DNA of 64,000 nucleotides from an uncultured Bacteroidota bacterium (GTDB taxonomy: Bacteria; Bacteroidota; Bacteroidia; Chitinophagales; Chitinophagaceae). The notes under the pieces were generated by a model, which was given only the letters and a program-made list of their open reading frames with translations, searched no databases and had not been told where the DNA came from. The stretch covers positions 3,477 to 67,476 of the forward strand of contig CAIRHQ010000004.1 in assembly GCA_903878475.1 (NCBI GenBank), read 5' to 3'. Made by a program: the position numbers and the translations under genes. Below are positions 42,010-63,532 of the stretch, piece by piece. Numbering within the stretch: position 1 is the stretch's first letter; each line of letters opens with the position of its first letter.

Positions 42010-42411
42010 ATGACCGATATTTCAGGTGAAATAAAATTCAAGACCGCCAGAAGTGGGGGTAAAGGTGGCCAACACGTGAATAAAGTGGAAACCATGGTAG
42101 AGGGATATTGGCAGGTGGCTAACAGCAAACTCTTCAACGATGAAGAAAAAACACGCATCGCTGAAAAACTATCCAACAAGATCAATCTGGGCGGCTTCTT
42201 ATTGGTAAAAAGCCAATCGGATCGCAGCCAGCTGGGCAATAAGGAACTGGTACTAAAAAAAATGAATGCGCTGATTCAAAAAGCATTGTTGGTACCCAAA
42301 AAAAGAAAACCTACTAAAATTTCGAAATTAGCCAAACAGAAAACACTGGATGCTAAAAAAAGAACCGGGGCATTGAAAAAAGACCGGAGAAAAATAAGCG
42401 GAAATGAATAA
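42010..42411 (+). CDS. arfB: Alternative ribosome rescue peptidyl-tRNA hydrolase ArfB
   Basis: ARSGGKGGQHVNKVET (GGQ), RSQLGNK and a basic tail RKPTK...KK; start at 42007 or 42010. Confidence 0.92.
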   Translation: MTDISGEIKFKTARSGGKGGQHVNKVETMVEGYWQVANSKLFNDEEKTRIAEKLSNKINLGGFLLVKSQSDRSQLGNKELVLKKMNALIQKALLVPKKRKPTKISKLAKQKTLDAKKRTGALKKDRRKISGNE

Positions 42412-43144
42412 TACAAATAAATGGCTCATTGTGATTTTGGCAATATTGCTATGTCAACAGGTGATGGCACAAAACAATCAGACCCAAAATAACCAGGGCA
42501 CGATCACGCTATCATTTATTCCTAACGTTGCCGGAAAACCGCTGGTGCTGAACGATTCCAGTTATACCAATCCTTTTGATGAAATATACCAGATCAGTAA
42601 ATTCAGGTTTTATGTAAGTCAGGTAAGTGCAAAGGATAAACAGCGTTCACAGAAAGAGAAAAATAGTTACCATTTGATCGACGCGGCAGATCCCGCATCA
42701 TTACAATTTAGTTTTTCTTTGAAGCCGGGCAAGTACAATTCGATTGATTTTTTATTGGGTGTTGATAGTGTAAGAAATTTCAGTGGCGCACAAACTGGTG
42801 AGTTGGATCCTGTAAAAAATATGTTCTGGACCTGGAACAGCGGCTATGTAATGCTGAAACTGGAAGGAAGATCAACCGCATCAACCGCATTGAATAATCG
42901 CATAGAATATCATATTGGCGGATATTCCGGGGCGTTCAATACCATTAAAAAGATCCACCTGGATGCGAATTTTGAAATTGTGGCCGGAAAATCTGTTTCG
43001 TTACCAATAAAAACGGACATCAATACCCTATGGCAGGGTGCCCACGATATCCGTATTGCCGCATCACCGGTTTGTGCCATACCCTGTGCACTGGCAATGC
43101 AAATTGCCGATAACTACAGTAAAATGTTCAGCATTATAAAATAA
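42404..43144 (+). CDS. mbnP: MbnP family protein
   Basis: KFRFYVS, FLLGVDS, DPVKNMFWTWNSGY (WxW), KLEG and YHIGG; signal peptide; directly upstream of a di-heme peroxidase. Confidence 0.8.
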   Translation: MNNTNKWLIVILAILLCQQVMAQNNQTQNNQGTITLSFIPNVAGKPLVLNDSSYTNPFDEIYQISKFRFYVSQVSAKDKQRSQKEKNSYHLIDAADPASLQFSFSLKPGKYNSIDFLLGVDSVRNFSGAQTGELDPVKNMFWTWNSGYVMLKLEGRSTASTALNNRIEYHIGGYSGAFNTIKKIHLDANFEIVAGKSVSLPIKTDINTLWQGAHDIRIAASPVCAIPCALAMQIADNYSKMFSIIK

Positions 43145-43149
43145 AGCGC

Positions 43150-44193
43150 ATGCGGAAAATATCCATCCTTGTATTATTCGTTGGTTTAGTGTGGATGGCA
43201 GGATTTTTTATGAGCGCAGGCAAACATGAAGGACCCTGGAAACCTACTTACCTCTCTTTTAATATTCCGGCCGGATGGCCCAAACCACCCAAGGATATTT
43301 TTATCAGCAACAGGTTAACAGAGGAAGGATTTCAACTCGGGAAAAAATTATTTTATGATGGTCGCCTGAGTAAGGATGGAAATTTTGCCTGTGCCACCTG
43401 TCACCAACAATATGCCGCCTTTGCAAATTACGATCATGATTTCAGCCATGGTTTCAATAATGCATTTACCAAAAGGAATGCTCCGCCCCTGTTCAATCTG
43501 GCCTGGATGCCTTTGCTGCATTGGGATGGAGCCATCAACCACTTGGAAGTTCAACCACTCGGTCCGATCACCTCAACCATTGAAATGGCTGAACAAATTG
43601 ATAGCGTATTGTTCAAATTGAAAAAAGACAGCGCTTACCGTCGCATGTTCAAAGCTGCTTTTGGAGATGCCACGATCAATAGCCAGCGACTCCTAAAAGC
43701 AATTGCACAATTCACCGGCACCATCATTTCTGCGGGTTCTAAATATGATAAGGTACAGCGGGGAGAAGCCAGTTTTACCCCATCAGAACAAAATGGTTAC
43801 CAGTTGTTCAAAACAAAATGTTCGGGATGCCATCCGGAGCCGCTGTTCACTGATTATTCTTTTCGCAACAATGGCTTGTCGGTAAATAAATTATTGAACG
43901 ACTCTGGCAGGATGAGGATCACGAGAGACAACAAAGACTCCTTGAAATTTAAAGTACCCAGTCTGCGCAATGTAGCGATCAGCTTTCCGTACATGCACGA
44001 CGGCAGATTTTTTTCGCTGGGCGAAGTGATCGATCATTACAGAACCGGCATTGTTACCGCACAGCCCAGTTTGGATAGTCTGCTGAAAAAAAGGATCCCA
44101 CTGACCAATATGGAAAAGAATAACCTCATCTTTTTTTTACATACTTTAACAGACAGTACACTCACCCATAACCCCCGCTTTGCGGTACATTGA
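43150..44193 (+). CDS. mbnH: MbnH-like di-heme cytochrome c peroxidase
   Basis: CATCH and CSGCH, RNAPPL, HWDG, FKVPSLRNVAISFPYMHDG; 5 nt after mbnP. Confidence 0.78.
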   Translation: MRKISILVLFVGLVWMAGFFMSAGKHEGPWKPTYLSFNIPAGWPKPPKDIFISNRLTEEGFQLGKKLFYDGRLSKDGNFACATCHQQYAAFANYDHDFSHGFNNAFTKRNAPPLFNLAWMPLLHWDGAINHLEVQPLGPITSTIEMAEQIDSVLFKLKKDSAYRRMFKAAFGDATINSQRLLKAIAQFTGTIISAGSKYDKVQRGEASFTPSEQNGYQLFKTKCSGCHPEPLFTDYSFRNNGLSVNKLLNDSGRMRITRDNKDSLKFKVPSLRNVAISFPYMHDGRFFSLGEVIDHYRTGIVTAQPSLDSLLKKRIPLTNMEKNNLIFFLHTLTDSTLTHNPRFAVH

Positions 44194-56269: not shown

Positions 56270-56308
56270 AAAAAAAATGTCCATTTGCACAAGCAAATGA
56301 ACATTTTT
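56270..56308 (-). terminator. Terminator ending the NrfC/NrfD/cytochrome c operon
   Basis: AAAAATGT-CATTTGC-loop-GCAAATG-ACATTTTT hairpin with a T-tract on the minus strand. Confidence 0.7.
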
Positions 56309-56342: not shown

Positions 56343-56744
56343 TTATTTAAGAGTTCTGAGATAATTTACCACAGCCCACATACCATTAGGATCTGTGATT
56401 TTTTTCTTGAATGAAGGCATATCCTTACGGCCTTCTGCTGTTTTATAATACAAAGCACCGTCAGTTTGTGCAGTCAAATCTTTTGTAAAATCACCGCATT
56501 CTGTATCTAACTGAGAAGCTTTTGGACCATCTCCTTTCCCTTTTGTTCCATGACATGATTTGCAATGTGTGTTGTATAAGTCTTTGCCAGTGGCAATTGA
56601 AGCTGCATCAGCTTTAACCGGATTGGCTTTATTCTTAGCGGCATCAGGTACAGGCCAAGGGTCGTTGGTATTATGTTTTGGTACGAACGCTACCAGAGAA
56701 ATTGCAAAAACTACTGCGAAAAACACTGAAATTTTCTTTTTCAT
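56343..56744 (-). CDS. Periplasmic monoheme class I cytochrome c (ActE-like fold pattern)
   Basis: Signal peptide, NPV...GKDLYNTHCKSCHG.KGKGDGP, DGALYY and distal Met in DMPSF. Confidence 0.88.
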   Translation of the reverse strand: MKKKISVFFAVVFAISLVAFVPKHNTNDPWPVPDAAKNKANPVKADAASIATGKDLYNTHCKSCHGTKGKGDGPKASQLDTECGDFTKDLTAQTDGALYYKTAEGRKDMPSFKKKITDPNGMWAVVNYLRTLK

Positions 56745-56780
56745 TTTGTATCGATTTTAATTTTTATTGAATAAACAAAG

Positions 56781-57746
56781 TTACACATTAATTGGATTAT
56801 TTGGCTCGTGGGGCTCCTCTTTTCTAAGTCTTAACAATTCGAAAACAATGACAAAATAGTGGCCCCAAACGGTAGCAACCAGTATCACAAAAGTGATCAC
56901 CATCCATAGTGGAGGATGTGCACTCCATAAAGCCCTGGGCATTACAGAATTAACGTCAGAAACCGCTACTCCCCAGTTTTGACTGGTACTGGATTCAAGA
57001 TTTCCATAGGTTTCATTTTCATCTATCTTAGCGATCAGCGTAATATTTCCATTGGCATCTCCGGGTAATCCTTTCGGTATTTCCAGGGTTCCTTCACCGG
57101 TAGTATCGGTCGTTACTTCTCCCAGTTTCATAGGAAAGAACTGACGCTTTACAAATATCCCTACCACTATATTTGATACGCCGGCTTCTTTGCCTGTTCC
57201 TACATCAATCAGTTTCACTTTCACTGAGGTTACAGAATCCTCCTTAATGGGTGTAATATCGATCCTGGCTCGCTTTGCCGTTACTTCTCCATCGGTTGCT
57301 TCCATGGATTTATTGCCGGCAAACATCGCTTTAAAATGAACCTTTCCATCCTTATCCACCAACAACTGATTGGCCTTGCAGTTGAATACGCCTTTTCCAT
57401 TCAGGTCGGTAATGATGAAGCCCATTTCCTTATTAACGGTATCGGCTACCTGATAAAAAGTCACTTTTAATAGGGGCAGTTTAATGGTACTGCCTTTGAA
57501 TTTTGTTTTCAAGGCAACCTTCAAATCTACTGAGCTATCAGCTTTCTGTATACTCAATAGTTCTAAGGAGGGAGAAAGCAAACTAGGTTCTGTTGCAGCC
57601 ACTGTAGTATCTGCAGTTGTTTTAGCACTGTCGGCTTGTGCAAAAACATGACTGGGTAAAATATTTATTAATACACTAAGGGCAGCGCATACCAGTAGTT
57701 GCCGACATCCTTTAATAAGCGCCTGATTTTTTGAATATTTTTTCAT
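56781..57746 (-). CDS. Hypothetical exported beta-rich protein with C-terminal membrane anchor
   Basis: Signal peptide ending VFAQ, beta-rich body, C-terminal TM PPLWMVITFVILVATVWGHYFVIV; lies inside the operon. Confidence 0.75.
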   Translation of the reverse strand: MKKYSKNQALIKGCRQLLVCAALSVLINILPSHVFAQADSAKTTADTTVAATEPSLLSPSLELLSIQKADSSVDLKVALKTKFKGSTIKLPLLKVTFYQVADTVNKEMGFIITDLNGKGVFNCKANQLLVDKDGKVHFKAMFAGNKSMEATDGEVTAKRARIDITPIKEDSVTSVKVKLIDVGTGKEAGVSNIVVGIFVKRQFFPMKLGEVTTDTTGEGTLEIPKGLPGDANGNITLIAKIDENETYGNLESSTSQNWGVAVSDVNSVMPRALWSAHPPLWMVITFVILVATVWGHYFVIVFELLRLRKEEPHEPNNPINV

Positions 57747-57756
57747 AAACTATTTT

Positions 57757-59106
57757 TTAAGCAGAAGCGATTTCATTTTCATTCAATACGGGTTGTTCAG
57801 CCGTTGTTCCCTTATTAGCAAACTCAGAGATGGGTATCACCGTTACAAATTTTGACATTAAGGTAAAGAACAGGAAGAATGTGGCTATCCCACCAAAGGT
57901 GAGGGCCCATTCTACCCAGGTAGCTGTATATTTCACATACTCAATTCTTGTATCCTGCATAGGAAGTAAAGGAGATTCCAATGTAGGTACAATGATCAGG
58001 TATCTTTTTACCCATAATGCGATCACCATGAACAAAGAAACCAGTGCAATCAGGTTGGGTGTTCTGGTTTTGGGCAAGGCTACTACCACAATCGGTAATA
58101 GAATACCTGCAACATTCGCAAACAAGAACCACCATCCGTATTTGGCCGGGTTGAACAATTTTTCAAGTACTTCACTTTCCCATTTTTCTGAAGCAAACCA
58201 ACCGGTGAGGTATTCAGAAAAAGTAAAGTATCCATAACCTGCACCCAATACCATCATGATATAACCCAGGTAAATAAAATGTTTATCAGTAAGATAGCTT
58301 TGCAATCCGTACATCTTCCTGTACACCCACATTGCCATGATCAACACACCGGTACCGGAATAAATAGCGGCCAGTACAAAATAAGGTCCAAAGATGGTAC
58401 TATGCCATCCTGGGCGAAGGGTCATACCAAAGATCCAAGACAATACAGAGTGTACGATGATGGCCAGCGGTACAATCATGATGGCCATAAGATTGGTACT
58501 GATGCGGATATGTCTATTCTGACTATGAGTTCCACGATAACCAATGGCAAGGATCTTATATAATTTTTGTTTCCATTTTGGAATATTCAATTTAGCATCA
58601 CGGTAAATGGCAAAGTCTTTGATCAATGCCAGATACAAGAAGATCACACTACCTGTGAAATAAGTACTGATGGCCAGTACGTCCCAGGTAATAGGTGATT
58701 GCAGCCTGGGATAGATGAACAGGTGATGAAGCCTGTCGAGCCTACCCACACATAATAAGATATACACCGGACCAATGATGGTAGCGATCACGGTGATCAT
58801 TTCAGCGATCCTGATAATGGGTTTTCTCCATTCCACTTTCAGGATATGCAGGATACCGGAAATAACGGCGCCGGCATAACTGATCCCGATAAAGAAAATG
58901 AAGTTGGCGATATACAAACCCCAAACCACATTGTCGCGCATCCCTGTAATACCATGTCCCTTCGTGATTTGAAGGTATAAGGCATATCCACCCAAAAGAA
59001 TCCAGGCCATAAAAAAGATAGTCCAAGCCCAGGTTTTTTTTCCGAAATTTTCGATAACCGGACGTTGTTTATCAAAAGCTTCCTGTTGATATTTATTGAG
59101 TTCCAT
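57757..59106 (-). CDS. nrfD: NrfD/PsrC/ActC-family quinol-interacting membrane subunit
   Basis: VVWGLYIANFIFFIGISYAG, WRKPIIRIAE, SPITWDV, HSVLSW, RPGWHSTIFGPYF and RYLIIVP; about 10 TM segments. Confidence 0.88.
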   Translation of the reverse strand: MELNKYQQEAFDKQRPVIENFGKKTWAWTIFFMAWILLGGYALYLQITKGHGITGMRDNVVWGLYIANFIFFIGISYAGAVISGILHILKVEWRKPIIRIAEMITVIATIIGPVYILLCVGRLDRLHHLFIYPRLQSPITWDVLAISTYFTGSVIFLYLALIKDFAIYRDAKLNIPKWKQKLYKILAIGYRGTHSQNRHIRISTNLMAIMIVPLAIIVHSVLSWIFGMTLRPGWHSTIFGPYFVLAAIYSGTGVLIMAMWVYRKMYGLQSYLTDKHFIYLGYIMMVLGAGYGYFTFSEYLTGWFASEKWESEVLEKLFNPAKYGWWFLFANVAGILLPIVVVALPKTRTPNLIALVSLFMVIALWVKRYLIIVPTLESPLLPMQDTRIEYVKYTATWVEWALTFGGIATFFLFFTLMSKFVTVIPISEFANKGTTAEQPVLNENEIASA

Positions 59107-59148
59107 AATGATTAATATTCATGGTTAATTCAAATACTGTTTTGGTTC

Positions 59149-60108
59149 TTATTTTTCTGTGCCTTCCATGGCATCTTTATAACGCGCTTTGATCTTGTCG
59201 GGAAGGTTCTCATATCCCCTTTCCACAGGGAACTGCCTGTCTTTTGGTGGCAGATAATATACCCGTGGTTTGGTTCCTAATTCTTCCATAAACCTGTATC
59301 CTGCGCGGTCTTTGATCAACTGTTTGAAGCCTAGGGTTTCATCACCATTGGAAACGGTGTCTTCATTTTCATCTCCATAATAGAATACACCATTTGGACA
59401 AGCTTCCACGCATGGTGGCAGCAGGCCTACACGAGCTCTATCCGGACAGAAATCACATTTTTCAACTGTACCCACTTTAGCAGGGATATTGGTTTCAGGA
59501 TTAGATACTGCATGCTGAATATCAAATGGCATCTCGGGTTCATTCCAATTGAACACCCTGGTTGAATAAGGACAGGCGGCCATACAGAATTTACATCCGA
59601 TGCATCTTTCATTATCTATTAATACCAGACCATCCTGTCTTTTATAAGTAGCGTCTACCGGACAAACCTTAACGCATGGCGGGTTGTCGCAATGGAAACA
59701 CTGTTTGGGAAACCAGTAAGGTGGTGCATTTTCACTGTCGCGCATCAGTTTTACCGTTAACCACTCACGGTCTTCGGGGCGATAATGCCATTTCTGACAA
59801 GCGGAAATACATTTACGGGCATCTTTGCAACGGGATAGATCTACTACCATTACAAATTTCTTACCCGCGATCCCCTGCCTGGCTTCCAGTTTCGACACAA
59901 TGGCCAAATGTTCCTGGTAATTCAGGTAAGAAGAATCGATCTCCACGATCTCGCCATCGGGAGAAAGCAGTTTTACTTTTTCATTAGCAGCTACTTTTGA
60001 ACTGCATGAGCTTGCCAAAGTACCGCATGCAGCAGTAGCAACTGTAGCAAGGGCAACCGTTTTTATAAAATCTCGGCGGCCGTTGTCATTGGTTTCTAGT
60101 TCTTTCAT
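59149..60108 (-). CDS. NrfC/DmsB-type 4Fe-4S dicluster protein with Tat-lipoprotein signal
   Basis: GRRDFIK, hydrophobic stretch and ASSC lipobox; CKDARKCISAC, CFHCDNPPCVKVCP, CIGCKFCMAACP and CDFC...PPCVEACP; GTKPRVYY. Confidence 0.88.
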   Translation of the reverse strand: MKELETNDNGRRDFIKTVALATVATAACGTLASSCSSKVAANEKVKLLSPDGEIVEIDSSYLNYQEHLAIVSKLEARQGIAGKKFVMVVDLSRCKDARKCISACQKWHYRPEDREWLTVKLMRDSENAPPYWFPKQCFHCDNPPCVKVCPVDATYKRQDGLVLIDNERCIGCKFCMAACPYSTRVFNWNEPEMPFDIQHAVSNPETNIPAKVGTVEKCDFCPDRARVGLLPPCVEACPNGVFYYGDENEDTVSNGDETLGFKQLIKDRAGYRFMEELGTKPRVYYLPPKDRQFPVERGYENLPDKIKARYKDAMEGTEK

Positions 60109-60127
60109 GAAATAAAATTTGAAAGGA

Positions 60128-60358
60128 TCAAATATTGTTTTCTTTAGAAGGATTTTCCATCCAGTCATAAATTTGCTGGTTGCTGGCTTTTTTTTGAGAG
60201 GTCAGTTTATCCAGAATGGCTTTGTCGACCTCCACCAGTTTGCCATCAGGAGTGAGCATTTTTACTTTCCCGGAACCGGTTGTAGCATTACTCTTTGGAG
60301 TAAAAAGTGATAAAAACCAGCGGCGGGATTTTGTGTCGGAATTTGAATTGTTTCCCAT
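60128..60358 (-). CDS. Small hypothetical protein (76 aa) with twin-arginine motif, paralogous to the Fe-S subunit N-terminus
   Basis: SRRWFL plus KVKMLTPDGKLVEVD, versus GRRDFI plus KVKLLSPDGEIVEID in the next gene. Confidence 0.75.
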   Translation of the reverse strand: MGNNSNSDTKSRRWFLSLFTPKSNATTGSGKVKMLTPDGKLVEVDKAILDKLTSQKKASNQQIYDWMENPSKENNI

Positions 60359-60440
60359 TGTATTTTGTAATTGATTATAAATAAATAATGACAGTAACAA
60401 TCACAGATGCAATATTATCCATGCAATTTTTACCATCTCA

Positions 60441-60524
60441 TGACAAACATCAAGGTATAAAATGAGTATTATCATCCTTTCCGTACCGGGTGATAGTGGT
60501 TTGAAAACTCCCTGACTAAAGTCA
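60441..60524. promoter_or_regulatory. Three TGA-N6-TCA palindromes (Crp/Fnr-type operator candidates) in the divergent intergenic region
   Basis: TGACAAACATCA 60441-60452, TGAGTATTATCA 60463-60474, TGACTAAAGTCA 60513-60524. Confidence 0.55.
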
Positions 60525-60569
60525 TGTTCTGCTAATACGATTGTCATAATACTGTCAAAGAGCCCAATC

Positions 60570-60577
60570 TAACTTTG
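60570..60577 (+). promoter_or_regulatory. -7 promoter element TAACTTTG for the lipoprotein/beta-barrel operon
   Basis: Exact TAnnTTTG 87 nt upstream of the ATG at 60665. Confidence 0.55.
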
Positions 60578-60664
60578 GGGCCTCAATTACAAAATGAATT
60601 GAGTTCTTTTAACAAAAGAGACCAAAACAGTATCCATTTTTTCAATAAGTAAATTAAATTTTTT

Positions 60665-61855
60665 ATGAAAAAAATTTCATTGATCAAAGCAACGACACTC
60701 TTCCTTGCAGTTATGTTCGTTTCTGCTTCTATTATCCAGTGTAAAAAAACCGGCGACATTGTAAAAGACCTGGACAGGTCATTCAAAGGCTCGGCCGACA
60801 CTACTATTTATGCTGCTTTTTATGAGAGCAACACCATCACTCCAGCTGATGCAACAGCTGATGTGAATGATGTAATTAAATTCCGTGGAGTACAAACCAT
60901 CATCCACGAATATTGCGCTACATCTAATTGTCATGGCGGCCCTATCGGTCCTAAATTCGATACCTATGCCGACATCATGAAATATGTAGTGGCTGGCAAT
61001 CCTGAAGGAAGCAAAATGTGGGATTATTTGACCACCAACAACTTCGACAAGGCAATGCCTCCGGTTAATTCTAATCACGAAATGACCGTGACCGACAAAA
61101 ATCTTCTTTACAACTGGATCAAGAATGGTGCGAAAGAAAAACCAAACCTGGCCGATTTCAGACCAGCAGCTGTAACGCTGATCGGAAATGGTTGTGCTTC
61201 TGCTAACTGCCATAATGAAGCTACTTCTACAGGCGGTTGGGCAAGGGCAGGATTTATCCCTGGCTTAGTAACTGGTGACACTTCACAATATACATATATT
61301 AGCCCCTCTAATGGAGCGGCTACTATTTATTGTCAGCTTTCTAATGCAACTGTTCGCAACCAAGTTTGGAATGCATATAAAGACAGTGTAAGGAAATTCT
61401 ATTCTGATACCGTAGCTTTTGCAAGTTTCCGTCCATGGAAAACATTTGCTACACCACGTTCTGCCTTAAGCACCCGCGGACCACTGAATACTTATGATGA
61501 TATCATGCTTGATATTATGTATCCAAAAAGTATCAGAAGCAATTCATCTGTTCAATATACAGATCCTGTTACTTTAAAAACTTTTTACTCAAAAGGCAAT
61601 TACTTAAATGTTGCCAGTACAATCGTTAGTCGGATTGACTCCACTTTATTAGTGGCCAATCCTTTCACAGGAATCTATCAAACTTCTAGCCAAGGTGATA
61701 TGGCCTATGGTGATGGTGGTTTGAAAGCCAATGAGATCGCGCTGGTTAAAGCCTGGTATTTTGCCGATCCAAATATTCCTGATGTATGGAAATATGGCGT
61801 AAACAATGCCGGTATTTTCAAATACAGGAAAACAGGTAACATCATCAAAAAATAA
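60665..61855 (+). CDS. Lipoprotein with two planctomycete-type cytochrome c-like domains carrying CX4CH motifs
   Basis: Lipobox IIQC; CATSNCH...VVAGNPEGSKM...AMPP...LYNWIKNGA; second domain CASANCH...DMAYG...EIALVKAW. Confidence 0.7.
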   Translation: MKKISLIKATTLFLAVMFVSASIIQCKKTGDIVKDLDRSFKGSADTTIYAAFYESNTITPADATADVNDVIKFRGVQTIIHEYCATSNCHGGPIGPKFDTYADIMKYVVAGNPEGSKMWDYLTTNNFDKAMPPVNSNHEMTVTDKNLLYNWIKNGAKEKPNLADFRPAAVTLIGNGCASANCHNEATSTGGWARAGFIPGLVTGDTSQYTYISPSNGAATIYCQLSNATVRNQVWNAYKDSVRKFYSDTVAFASFRPWKTFATPRSALSTRGPLNTYDDIMLDIMYPKSIRSNSSVQYTDPVTLKTFYSKGNYLNVASTIVSRIDSTLLVANPFTGIYQTSSQGDMAYGDGGLKANEIALVKAWYFADPNIPDVWKYGVNNAGIFKYRKTGNIIKK

Positions 61856-61885
61856 TTGATACGATCATTCTAAAATTTTAGATAT

Positions 61886-62500
61886 ATGAAAAAAGTAGTA
61901 GTAACAATGGCGGTAATAACTTCAATGCTTATTTACCTCTTGTCATCTTGTTATAAAAACAAAGAAGATATCCTGGCCCTTCCAAAAATTTCATTCCGGT
62001 CAGATGTAGTGCCCATCATCGTTGCCGGTGGATGCGGTTGTCATAACAACGGACAAGCATCAAGAGCTGTCCAATTCTCTCATGCCGATACTATTTTTTA
62101 TGATGGTATCCTAGCCCGTCTTTCTTTATTTGATTCTTGGGTAAATGGCGGAACCCATCCAGGTGGTGGCATGATCGATTTTAAATCCAACGAAAAAACG
62201 ATCATTAAAAAATGGATCGCCGAAGGTGGTAAAGATGATGGCGGTGGTTGTACTGTTGCCGGTGTAATTACGCACACAGCCAAGATCCAGCCAATTTATC
62301 TTACAACCTGTAAGGGTTCTACCTGCCATGGTGGAATTGCGCTGACCCTTGATTACGCCAAAATGAAATCAGATGTTTCTATCATCACTTCTATGATGAA
62401 TAGTGGTGGAGCCAGTGGACATCCGGGTGGAGCATTGAGCCTGAGCACCTGTACCGTAAATACATTTAAAGAATGGATTGCACAGGGTCAACCCCAATAA
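61886..62500 (+). CDS. Lipoprotein with duplicated cytochrome c-like domains (CXCH and CX4CH)
   Basis: Lipobox LSSC; SFRSDVVPII..CGCH..HPGGG..KWIAEG and THTAKIQPIY..CKGSTCH..HPGGA..EWIAQG. Confidence 0.68.
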   Translation: MKKVVVTMAVITSMLIYLLSSCYKNKEDILALPKISFRSDVVPIIVAGGCGCHNNGQASRAVQFSHADTIFYDGILARLSLFDSWVNGGTHPGGGMIDFKSNEKTIIKKWIAEGGKDDGGGCTVAGVITHTAKIQPIYLTTCKGSTCHGGIALTLDYAKMKSDVSIITSMMNSGGASGHPGGALSLSTCTVNTFKEWIAQGQPQ

Positions 62501-62559
62501 TCATTAACCCGATATTTTACAAATTCTAAATGAATGTTATGAAAATAAAATCAGTTGAT

Positions 62560-63471
62560 ATGAAAAAGATACTTTCGCTCCTTGTATTTTGTCTGGGTTT
62601 CACCGCCTTCACCATTGCACAGGATGCCACCAAAATAACTAAAGAAAAAGCCGTTCCAAAATATGCCCGCGCTACTTTCAATTCTTCCCGCATCATCAAC
62701 ATGCAGAGTACAGAAATGGTAAGTAAAGGTGCATTGGAATTCATGATCTCTCACCATTTCAGCAATATCTGGAATAAGGATGCAGGATCTCAGAACCTGG
62801 CTCAGTTATTCGGACTGAACTCAGGTGTTGCACATACTTATTTATCATTCTCTTATTCTCCACTCAACTACATGAATGTGGGTTTAGCTGCAGCCGGAAA
62901 CTCTAAATATGAAGGCTGGCTAAAATTCAAACTGCTGCGTCAGCAAACAGGTTCTAAGAACATACCTGTTTCCGTTGCCTTATATTCAATGATGAATATC
63001 AATACAGCAAAGGATCCTGACCAATCATTTGCCGGAAACAAGATCGCTTTTGTGAATCAATTGTTGATCTCCCGCAAAATGACTGATAAACTGTCTCTGG
63101 AACTGATCCCTACCTGGGTACATTTCAACATCGTTCCTTACGGTATCAACAACAGTAACGAGGTATTCTCTTTAGGTTTAGCAGGAAGGTATAAAATAAA
63201 ACCAAAAATGAACCTTACGCTGGAGTATACACGCCAACTGAATATGTATGAGAACCTGATCACTAAGAACGGCAGTATCCTCAATTATCAGCCTAACCTG
63301 CTCTCTGCCGGTATTGAAATCAATACAGGCGGTCACTTGTTCCAATTCTACATCGGCAGCACAACAGATGCTTCTCTGCTTGACCAATTGGCTCGTAACA
63401 ACAGCAGTATTAAAGACGGTAATTTCGCTTTCGGCTTCACCATCAACAGAAGCCTGAGTTTGAAAAAATAA
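62560..63471 (+). CDS. DUF5777-like outer-membrane beta-barrel protein
   Basis: Signal peptide; ATFNSSRIINMQSTE, LEFMISHHF, KFKLLRQQTG, QLLISRK and INTGGHLFQFY; start MKKIL at 62560 preferred. Confidence 0.8.
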   Translation: MKKILSLLVFCLGFTAFTIAQDATKITKEKAVPKYARATFNSSRIINMQSTEMVSKGALEFMISHHFSNIWNKDAGSQNLAQLFGLNSGVAHTYLSFSYSPLNYMNVGLAAAGNSKYEGWLKFKLLRQQTGSKNIPVSVALYSMMNINTAKDPDQSFAGNKIAFVNQLLISRKMTDKLSLELIPTWVHFNIVPYGINNSNEVFSLGLAGRYKIKPKMNLTLEYTRQLNMYENLITKNGSILNYQPNLLSAGIEINTGGHLFQFYIGSTTDASLLDQLARNNSSIKDGNFAFGFTINRSLSLKK

Positions 63472-63501: not shown

Positions 63502-63532
63502 AAAAAAGCCGACCAAACAGGTCGGCTTTTTT
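63502..63532. terminator. Bidirectional intrinsic terminator
   Basis: AAAAAAGCCGACC-AAACA-GGTCGGCTTTTTT between convergent genes. Confidence 0.88.

Follow-up and report, generated by a model that had tools for sequence, protein, structure and literature searches.

The question raised by this locus is whether two short operons, lying back to back on the chromosome, encode a single redox chain that runs from the quinone pool to the outer membrane. The locus occupies positions 56,343 to 63,471 of a stretch of 64,000 nucleotides, referred to as the window, from contig CAIRHQ010000004.1 of an uncultured Bacteroidota bacterium (assembly GCA_903878475.1). The host is a Ferruginibacter (Chitinophagaceae), and the eight genes of the locus form two divergent operons between an icmF-type fused mutase gene and rsmA, which encodes an rRNA adenine dimethylase. 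A sequence-only reading of the window had proposed an undescribed trans-envelope electron-transfer system here, made up of an inner-membrane quinol module, a periplasmic monohaem cytochrome c, two lipoproteins with atypical haem motifs, and an outer-membrane barrel. It appears probable (about 0.6) that the eight genes do encode one envelope redox chain of two coupled modules, leading from menaquinol to lipoprotein haems at the barrel, with much less confidence attached to any particular substrate than to the chain as a whole. The features of the locus are as follows.

56270..56299, minus strand: intrinsic terminator of the leftward operon, hairpin CATTTGC-TTGT-GCAAATG and then eight T residues
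56343..56744, minus strand: monohaem class I cytochrome c (Pfam Cytochrom_C, E 8e-12)
56781..57746, minus strand: protein X, with a signal peptide and a C-terminal membrane helix, in no Pfam family
57757..59106, minus strand: NrfD-family quinol/quinone subunit (PF03916, E 1e-32)
59149..60108, minus strand: four-cluster iron-sulfur (Fe-S) subunit, exported by twin-arginine translocation (TAT) (Fer4_11, E 2e-24)
60128..60358, minus strand: 76-residue twin-arginine protein, the conserved first gene of the leftward operon
60359..60664, no strand: divergent control region, with conservation assessed over 62 orthologous regions
60665..61855, plus strand: lipoprotein A (LipoA), two Cx4CH motifs (PSCyt1 at the 22-bit cut-off)
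61886..62500, plus strand: lipoprotein B (LipoB), CGCH and Cx4CH (CKGSTCH)
62530..63471, plus strand: DUF5777 outer-membrane beta-barrel (PF19089, E 8e-68), likely start Met11 at 62560
63502..63532, plus strand: bidirectional terminator in the gap between the barrel gene and rsmA, 13-bp stem (6 GC pairs) with runs of A and T on either side

The eight genes lie where the sequence-only reading had placed them, as do the two terminators and the core genes on either side, and every item of that reading that could be checked is correct, including the quinol module of NrfD and a four-cluster Fe-S protein, the monohaem cytochrome c, and the DUF5777 barrel. Its wider interpretation as a trans-envelope system is partly supported, in that the linkage of the two arms, the cytochrome c fold, the fusion of barrel and haem domain, and the undescribed status of the system all speak for it.

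The evidence that the two arms belong together comes from other genomes. A search for LipoA in species-representative genomes gave 80 loci at 65-81% identity, 62 of them with at least 4.5 kb of upstream DNA, and NrfD lies 1.4-8.4 kb upstream of LipoA in 61 of these 62 loci and 11 kb away in the remaining one. The flanks of the eight-gene block vary, with icmF in some genomes, 2-oxoglutarate dehydrogenase in F. profundus and Ferruginibacter sp. SUN106, and other genes elsewhere, which indicates that the block moves as a unit. These two cultured strains have exactly the eight-gene unit seen here. NrfD was also typed in 40 relatives, in which the window type shows 37-89% identity and scores above 295 bits, while ActC of alternative complex III (ACIII) shows 31-34% identity and about 180 bits. 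At the nine loci with window-type NrfD in these relatives, a DUF5777 gene is present 1-12 kb away on the same contig or the contig ends fit, the contig-end cases being G001 and the paralogue in the genome of the window itself. An even sample of 250 Bacteroidota genomes added six more with the module, and in all six DUF5777 is within 11 kb. Co-occurrence of the arms across Bacteroidota had been named beforehand as a check on the proposal, and it is positive in the relatives, in the phylum sample, and among the LipoA orthologues. The NrfD genes of G077, G279, and G101 were considered as modules that lack a barrel, but they are part of another complex, one with multihaem cytochromes and an ActB-like molybdopterin-type subunit.

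Neither the orientation nor the order of the arms is constant. They may be divergent, or co-directional with the barrel genes upstream or downstream, and in G011 there is a single co-directional operon beside icmF, which runs EB_dh, cytochrome lipoprotein, DUF5777, Fe-S, NrfD, X, cytochrome c, with an NrfD 89% identical to that of the window. The two subclades of NrfD and the types of barrel also exchange partners (G011, L065). The fact that the linkage survives such extensive rearrangement is strong evidence of shared function.

There are two further arrangements of note. On one strand of G031 (L010, G031:C62:1-19026) a haem lipoprotein and DUF5777, cytochrome c, a seven-haem protein, ActBCDEF, a six-haem protein, and then Fe-S, NrfD, X, and cytochrome c form a respiratory supercluster. 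In Chitinophagaceae loci L035:10413-12677, L053, L093, and L101, a gene for an MMPL/RND-type transporter of about 750 residues lies between the NrfCD arm and the DUF5777 cluster.

Whether the lipoproteins are cytochromes is the next question. All three DUF5777 paralogues in the genome of the window adjoin small lipoproteins with a Cys-X4-Cys-His motif. An alignment of about 30 small cytochrome lipoproteins with the domains of LipoA and LipoB resolves into one domain of about 90 residues, carrying a lipobox Cys, a Cys-X2- or Cys-X4-Cys-His motif, a Met-Pro, and a C-terminal WIxxGAxNN. CxxCH and Cx4CH occupy one alignment column, some orthologues having the canonical CxxCH and others Cx4CH; the His is invariant and the Met-Pro is about 90% conserved. 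Among solved structures, the profile of this family matches FoxE (5mab) best, at E 6.8e-7, and cytochrome c6 at E 1.6e-6, and the Pfam members that it matches are Cytochrome_CBB3, PSCyt1, and PccH. To judge from these matches, the domain with the supposedly atypical haem motifs has the fold of a class I cytochrome c, FoxE/c6-like, in which the Cx4CH motifs would take the place of the usual haem motif. The genome has a CcsA/CcsBA-type gene for haem attachment, and the haem of the lipoproteins would be covalently bound.

LipoA has two FoxE/c6-like domains (CATSNCH with AMPP, and CASANCH) and a C-terminal domain of about 200 residues, for which there are no relatives in other cluster types among the loci examined. 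C84, C89, H90, M131, C177, C182, and H183 are invariant across 42 orthologues. There is also an invariant IIQC, in which Gln25 precedes the presumed anchor Cys26 (60737-60742); this is unusual for signal peptidase II sites and makes the lipidation of LipoA uncertain. LipoB (LLSSC) and the small cytochrome lipoproteins fit the lipobox rule. In LipoB there are tandem cytochrome c-like domains, with CGCH and CKGSTCH, each of which has HPGG where its relatives have the distal Met-Pro, and both haem motifs and both copies of HPGG are about 90% conserved in 17 orthologues. The presence of His-Pro in place of Met-Pro in both domains suggests bis-His haems. A possible sorting signal, C-Y-(K/Y)-D, follows the anchor Cys in many of the small cytochrome lipoproteins.

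The barrel itself matches DUF5777 at 228.7 bits, against a gathering threshold of 23.1, over model positions 1-246 of 247, with a domain of about 250 residues. This family is present in 105 of 251 sampled Bacteroidota genomes, including 39 of 41 from one large family and 0 of 51 from another. Two of the sampled genomes encode haem domain and barrel as a single protein, and this fused form is a large Rhodothermales family of about 400 residues, with 691 matches. Because Rhodothermales encode both as one polypeptide, a Rosetta-stone case, it would appear that the haem lipoprotein and the barrel work as a unit. An AlphaFold2 (AF2) model of a fused homologue, from 86 sequences, has a predicted local distance difference test score (pLDDT) of 91 and a predicted template modelling score (pTM) of 0.84, and in it a barrel of 12-14 strands comes after a helical cytochrome domain; among solved folds, FapF, OmpG, the COG4313 channel, and NanC are closest to this barrel. 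Two His residues of the barrel, H75 in ISHxF (codon 62752-62754) and H269 in TGGHxFQ (codon 63334-63336), are 99% conserved over 98 DUF5777 members, and F50, F77, G95, P146, G302, F303, and R307 are conserved alongside them. These residues are placed on the first, penultimate, and last strands, which are expected to be neighbours, and could form a cofactor or metal site. In the Rhodothermales-like locus L129:6957-11251, the fused gene is directly after MbnP, a MauG-like dihaem protein, and a sulfite-oxidase-family molybdenum enzyme. An MbnP/MbnH-like pair is also present within the window, at 42404-44193, about 12 kb from the locus.

If the lipoproteins and the barrel are one module, the partners found beside it elsewhere may indicate what it is connected to. 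Neighbours were surveyed for 79 DUF5777 genes, chosen independently of NrfD. The barrel is accompanied by a cytochrome lipoprotein and YceI in 47 of the 79, by YceI only in 13, by a cytochrome lipoprotein and a dihaem cytochrome c of about 340 residues in 6, by a cytochrome lipoprotein only in 6, by another haem-motif protein in 1, and by none of these in 6; overall, a cytochrome lipoprotein adjoins 60 of the 79. YceI is beside 60 of these 79 non-NrfCD barrels but only 1 of 14 NrfCD-linked ones, that one belonging to a neighbouring second cluster, and there is no YceI in any of the 80 LipoA loci. In Cbp2D and Cbp2E, which are extracellular redox proteins, cytochrome c domains occur together with a YceI-like domain that binds ubiquinone-8 (PMC8981238). 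The YceI-bound quinone, the dihaem cytochrome c, and the NrfCD-cytochrome c arm would therefore be candidates for alternative ways of connecting one and the same outer-membrane module to the quinone pool. The cluster type in which the dihaem cytochrome c replaces YceI or NrfCD is seen at L026:10659-11696, L148, L149, L151, L173, and L174. An interpretation of this two-haem neighbour as a peroxidase was rejected, Pfam showing cytochrome c domains only.

A paralogous cluster type adds an EB_dh (haem b, DOMON-like) lipoprotein, a type of domain that is known from extracellular electron transfer. In the genome of the window, C22:9267-12547 carries cytochrome c, an EB_dh haem-b lipoprotein, a Cx4CH lipoprotein, and a DUF5777 barrel at the contig end, and C153:77-2314 carries Fe-S, NrfD, and X', the remainder of X' being unassembled. 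By gene order the two contigs probably carry parts of one putative operon. A further DUF5777 cluster in the same genome, at C130:3160-6799, has YceI, an OB-fold anchor, a Cx4CH lipoprotein, and a large immunoglobulin-repeat protein that ends in a Cx4CH domain.

The other end of the proposed chain is the leftward operon. Its NrfD has about 10 membrane helices, with 32% identity to ActC of the same genome and 40% to the paralogue on C153, and NrfD of the window type forms clades separate from ActC and ActF. In NCBIfam it scores 85 bits as DsrP (cut-off 350) and 57 bits as QrcD, both far under the cut-off. The Fe-S protein, of 319 residues with the TAT signal GRRDFIK, aligns only with the C-terminal Fe-S part of the ActB of its own genome (28%), and its best NCBIfam match is DsrO at 178 bits (cut-off 200), with TtrB, ArrB, QrcC, and NrfC weaker. 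Protein X has a beta-rich periplasmic part between its signal peptide and a membrane helix at residues 283-301; no Pfam or PDB relative was found for it, and one orthologue gave a faint bMG3 match. It is a conserved subunit, placed between NrfD and cytochrome c in almost all modules. The cytochrome c, with CKSCH as its haem motif, a distal Met in KDMP, and an N-terminal hydrophobic signal or anchor, has 27% identity to ActE of the same genome, is the final gene of the FeS-NrfD-X-cytochrome c module in nearly all relatives, and is proposed to be the periplasmic carrier. The 76-residue protein is annotated as a gene in cultured Ferruginibacter and is first in the module in most relatives, with RRWF and KVKMLTPDGKLVEVD conserved in 12 orthologues. 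This twin-arginine protein has no normal hydrophobic signal core and resembles the N-terminal region of the Fe-S subunit, with 38% identity to residues 30-63 over 34 residues.

This arm would be a stripped-down relative of ACIII, which is present complete in the same genome, adjoining a caa3 oxidase. Both have a periplasm-facing four-cluster Fe-S protein, an NrfD-type quinol subunit with about 10 helices, and a monohaem cytochrome c, and the ActC, ActB, and ActE similarities given above are the best within-genome matches of the arm. Unlike ACIII, the arm is without the pentahaem ActA, the molybdopterin-like half of ActB, ActD, and the second NrfD-like subunit ActF, and it has X and the small twin-arginine protein instead. 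There is no multihaem gene at the locus and only one NrfD, and X has no meaningful similarity to ActD or ActF. Periplasm-facing pairs of Fe-S and NrfD subunits exchange electrons between quinol and periplasmic carriers, and in a survey of the NrfD family the only Bacteroidetes entries are ActC/F and NhcC, the present module being absent (PMC8076601). The same two-subunit periplasmic Fe-S and NrfD layout is found in NrfCD and in DsrOP of DsrMKJOP, from which the arm differs in scoring under the curated cut-offs, in having no DsrMKJ, NrfAB, or sulfur genes (there are no dsrMKJ genes in the window), and in belonging to an aerobic heterotroph.

The two operons diverge from an intergenic region of 306 bp. 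The sequence-only reading had described shared operator-like sites at this locus. Of the 27 matches to TGA-N6-TCA in the window, 3 are inside this region, where about 0.1 would be expected by chance. Most intergenic positions are unconserved over the 62 orthologous regions, among which are several conserved islands, and two of the TGA-N6-TCA sites and a TGTCA-N6-TGTCA repeat are conserved. The Bacteroidota -7 promoter box has the consensus TAnnTTTG.

60410-60417, minus strand (reverse complement): TAATATTG, putative leftward -7-like box
60441-60452: conserved island TGACAAACATCA
60513-60524: conserved island TGACTAAAGTCA
60542-60557: conserved repeat TGTCA-N6-TGTCA
60570-60577, plus strand: TAACTTTG, putative rightward -7 box, matching TAnnTTTG

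An assignment of all the conserved islands as Crp/Fnr operators was rejected in part, as two of them fit -7 promoter boxes better. Part of what had been taken for an operator array is promoter sequence. Shared regulation of both operons is plausible.

There are several known systems with which the locus can be compared. It follows the logic of MtrCAB, the Geobacter Pcc complexes, and MtoAB/PioAB, in which a quinol dehydrogenase, a periplasmic carrier, and a barrel with a cytochrome are combined. It differs from these porin-cytochrome conduits in that the window has no multihaem cytochromes, there being one or two haem motifs per lipoprotein, and in that the barrel is far smaller than the 26-strand MtrB, with no homology detected. 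In Cyc2 the CXXCH lies in a short N-terminal segment, and the porin has 16 strands and resembles OprO/OprP (PMC8406198). One haem c joined to one outer-membrane barrel is common to both, and in the Rhodothermales homologues this is likewise a single polypeptide, whereas the window proteins are split; compared by description, the present system has a full FoxE/c6-like domain of about 100 residues, mostly on a separate lipoprotein, and a 12-14-strand DUF5777 barrel. With FoxE of Rhodobacter ferrooxidans the match spans both FoxE domains and includes the WIxxGAxN motif and the Met-Pro distal ligand. However, FoxE is a soluble dihaem protein with CxxCH, encoded in a foxEYZ operon, and the window domains are lipoprotein-borne, often Cx4CH, and paired with a barrel, with no FoxY or FoxZ nearby. 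In Cbp2D and Cbp2E of Cellvibrio japonicus, a YceI-like X158 domain and cytochrome c domains form a pairing that has been proposed to carry electrons outside the cell (PMC8981238). Sister DUF5777 modules likewise pair a YceI protein with a small cytochrome c; the Cbp2 proteins are secreted and multidomain, with carbohydrate-binding modules, and the window cluster has no YceI.

How the parts might work together can be set out as follows. In the first module NrfD would bind menaquinol, the most likely outcome being that menaquinol is oxidised and cytochrome c loaded. The second module would be the outer-membrane end, in which FoxE-like lipoproteins, with haem held via Cx4CH or CxCH, would dock with the DUF5777 barrel. 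Electrons would pass from menaquinol through the Fe-S protein and cytochrome c to the lipoprotein haems at the barrel, where a small one-electron partner would be reduced, for example a surface redox protein or a metal ion that has entered the barrel. The NrfCD arm would then stand in for the YceI lipocalin or the dihaem cytochrome c that may act as feeders in most Bacteroidota. Outward flow is favoured because it would run downhill if menaquinol is the donor and a His/Met cytochrome c the acceptor. A more general proposal can be made only tentatively: the DUF5777 barrel and its FoxE-like haem partner may be the minimal trans-outer-membrane redox device of most aerobic Bacteroidota, in which either a metal ion gains access to the haem via the barrel or the two invariant His residues of the barrel carry a cofactor, with YceI-quinone, dihaem cytochrome, and mini-ACIII as interchangeable feeders. 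This would make it a third independent invention of the porin-cytochrome principle.

Several points weigh against a chain of this kind. The 12-14-strand barrel is too small to sheath a cytochrome as MtrB does, leaving the membrane crossing unexplained, and in the fused form the haem domain comes before the barrel, which by the usual outer-membrane topology would put it on the periplasmic side and not at the surface. CGCH is not known as a motif for haem attachment, and the AF2 model of LipoA is moderate (pLDDT 70), with no PDB fold match by Foldseek and no known fold for the C-terminal domain. FoxE-related His/Met haems typically belong to proteins that accept electrons, oxidising their partners, which makes inward flow possible. 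Because of relatedness among the sampled genomes, the linkage counts overstate independence. There are also orthologous LipoA-LipoB-YceI-DUF5777 clusters in G016 and G004 without an adjacent NrfCD. The occurrence of the barrel arm without the quinol arm indicates that the arms are coupled modules and not one indivisible machine.

The direction of flow is the point on which one alternative turns. In a Cyc2- or FoxE-like oxidase, Fe(II), another reduced metal, or a small donor would be oxidised by the haem lipoproteins at the barrel, and the electrons would go via cytochrome c to terminal oxidases or via NrfCD to menaquinone. The closest solved relative of the haem domain is indeed the Fe(II) oxidase FoxE, the fused haem-barrel layout mirrors that of Cyc2 (PMC8406198), the Met-Pro of the His/Met type is kept in most family members, and the ACIII and caa3 oxidase of the genome could take the electrons. 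Yet downhill transfer from Fe(II) to oxygen needs no quinol module, a heterotroph would have little use for reverse transfer to menaquinone, nearly all of the ordinary aerobic Flavobacteriaceae sampled have the module (39 of 41), and LipoB has His for Met in both domains. Inward flow is unlikely. A chain that ends in a periplasmic redox enzyme, with NrfCD feeding lipoproteins that reduce peroxide, oxidised lipid, or protein at the inner face of the outer membrane and the barrel serving as anchor or substrate channel, is given the same low standing. It would suit the conserved and unique C-terminal domain of LipoA, which could be catalytic, the restriction of the family to aerobic lineages (the family with 0 of 51 being probably gut anaerobes), the hint of hydrophobic ligands from YceI and the COG4313-like barrel fold, and the fused homologue that adjoins MbnP, the MauG-like dihaem protein, and the molybdenum oxidoreductase. 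However, none of the core components matched a peroxidase or any other catalytic family, and most modules consist of one monohaem domain, YceI, and the barrel only.

It is improbable that the system does not use haem at all, with Cys-His motifs that bind metal or form disulfides, a barrel and partners that move lipid or metal, and an NrfCD that is loosely associated. In favour of this are the unusual CGCH motif, the equally unusual placing of Gln ahead of the anchor Cys of LipoA, the uncertainty of the AF2 model near the motifs, and the two invariant His residues of the barrel, which could bind metal; set against this, the profile matches solved cytochromes c at about 1e-6, orthologues have canonical CxxCH in place of Cx4CH, and the partners in sister clusters are cytochromes, the EB_dh haem-b domain, and ACIII. 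Very improbable indeed is the explanation that a small quinol:cytochrome c complex and an unrelated outer-membrane operon happen to lie back to back. Each arm has a separate promoter and terminator, and the barrel arm is found alone elsewhere, but the linkage is present in 62 of 62 and 14 of 14 cases despite changed flanks, orientation, order, and partner type, where the chance of finding a gene within 12 kb of one of 1-3 barrel genes in a genome of 3-4 Mb is about 1-2%. Mere neighbourhood is therefore largely refuted, being nearly excluded by synteny.

In the literature searched there is no mention of DUF5777 and no description of this system. A survey of iron-oxidation proteins reported FoxE homologues in Proteobacteria only, and a Riemerella iron-limitation transcriptome lists as mildly induced a YceI-like gene that may or may not be connected to the DUF5777 module. 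The system is a real, undescribed, and non-homologous version of the porin-cytochrome idea. Since cultured Ferruginibacter strains have the exact eight-gene unit, the proposal is directly testable.

The known routes to the outer membrane (Mtr, Pcc, Mto/Pio, and Cyc2) are mainly those of metal-respiring or iron-oxidising specialists. The module here is built from other parts, an unstudied barrel family, a FoxE-like monohaem domain, and a cut-down ACIII, and it is common in aerobic Bacteroidota. If the proposed chain is correct, there would be a role for DUF5777, for the YceI proteins of Bacteroidota, and for Cx4CH cytochrome domains, and the Bacteroidota of soil, freshwater, marine, and wastewater environments would gain an unrecognised redox interface with metals, humic substances, or surface enzymes. 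Should the more tentative general proposal also hold, the porin-cytochrome principle would be present in ordinary heterotrophs.

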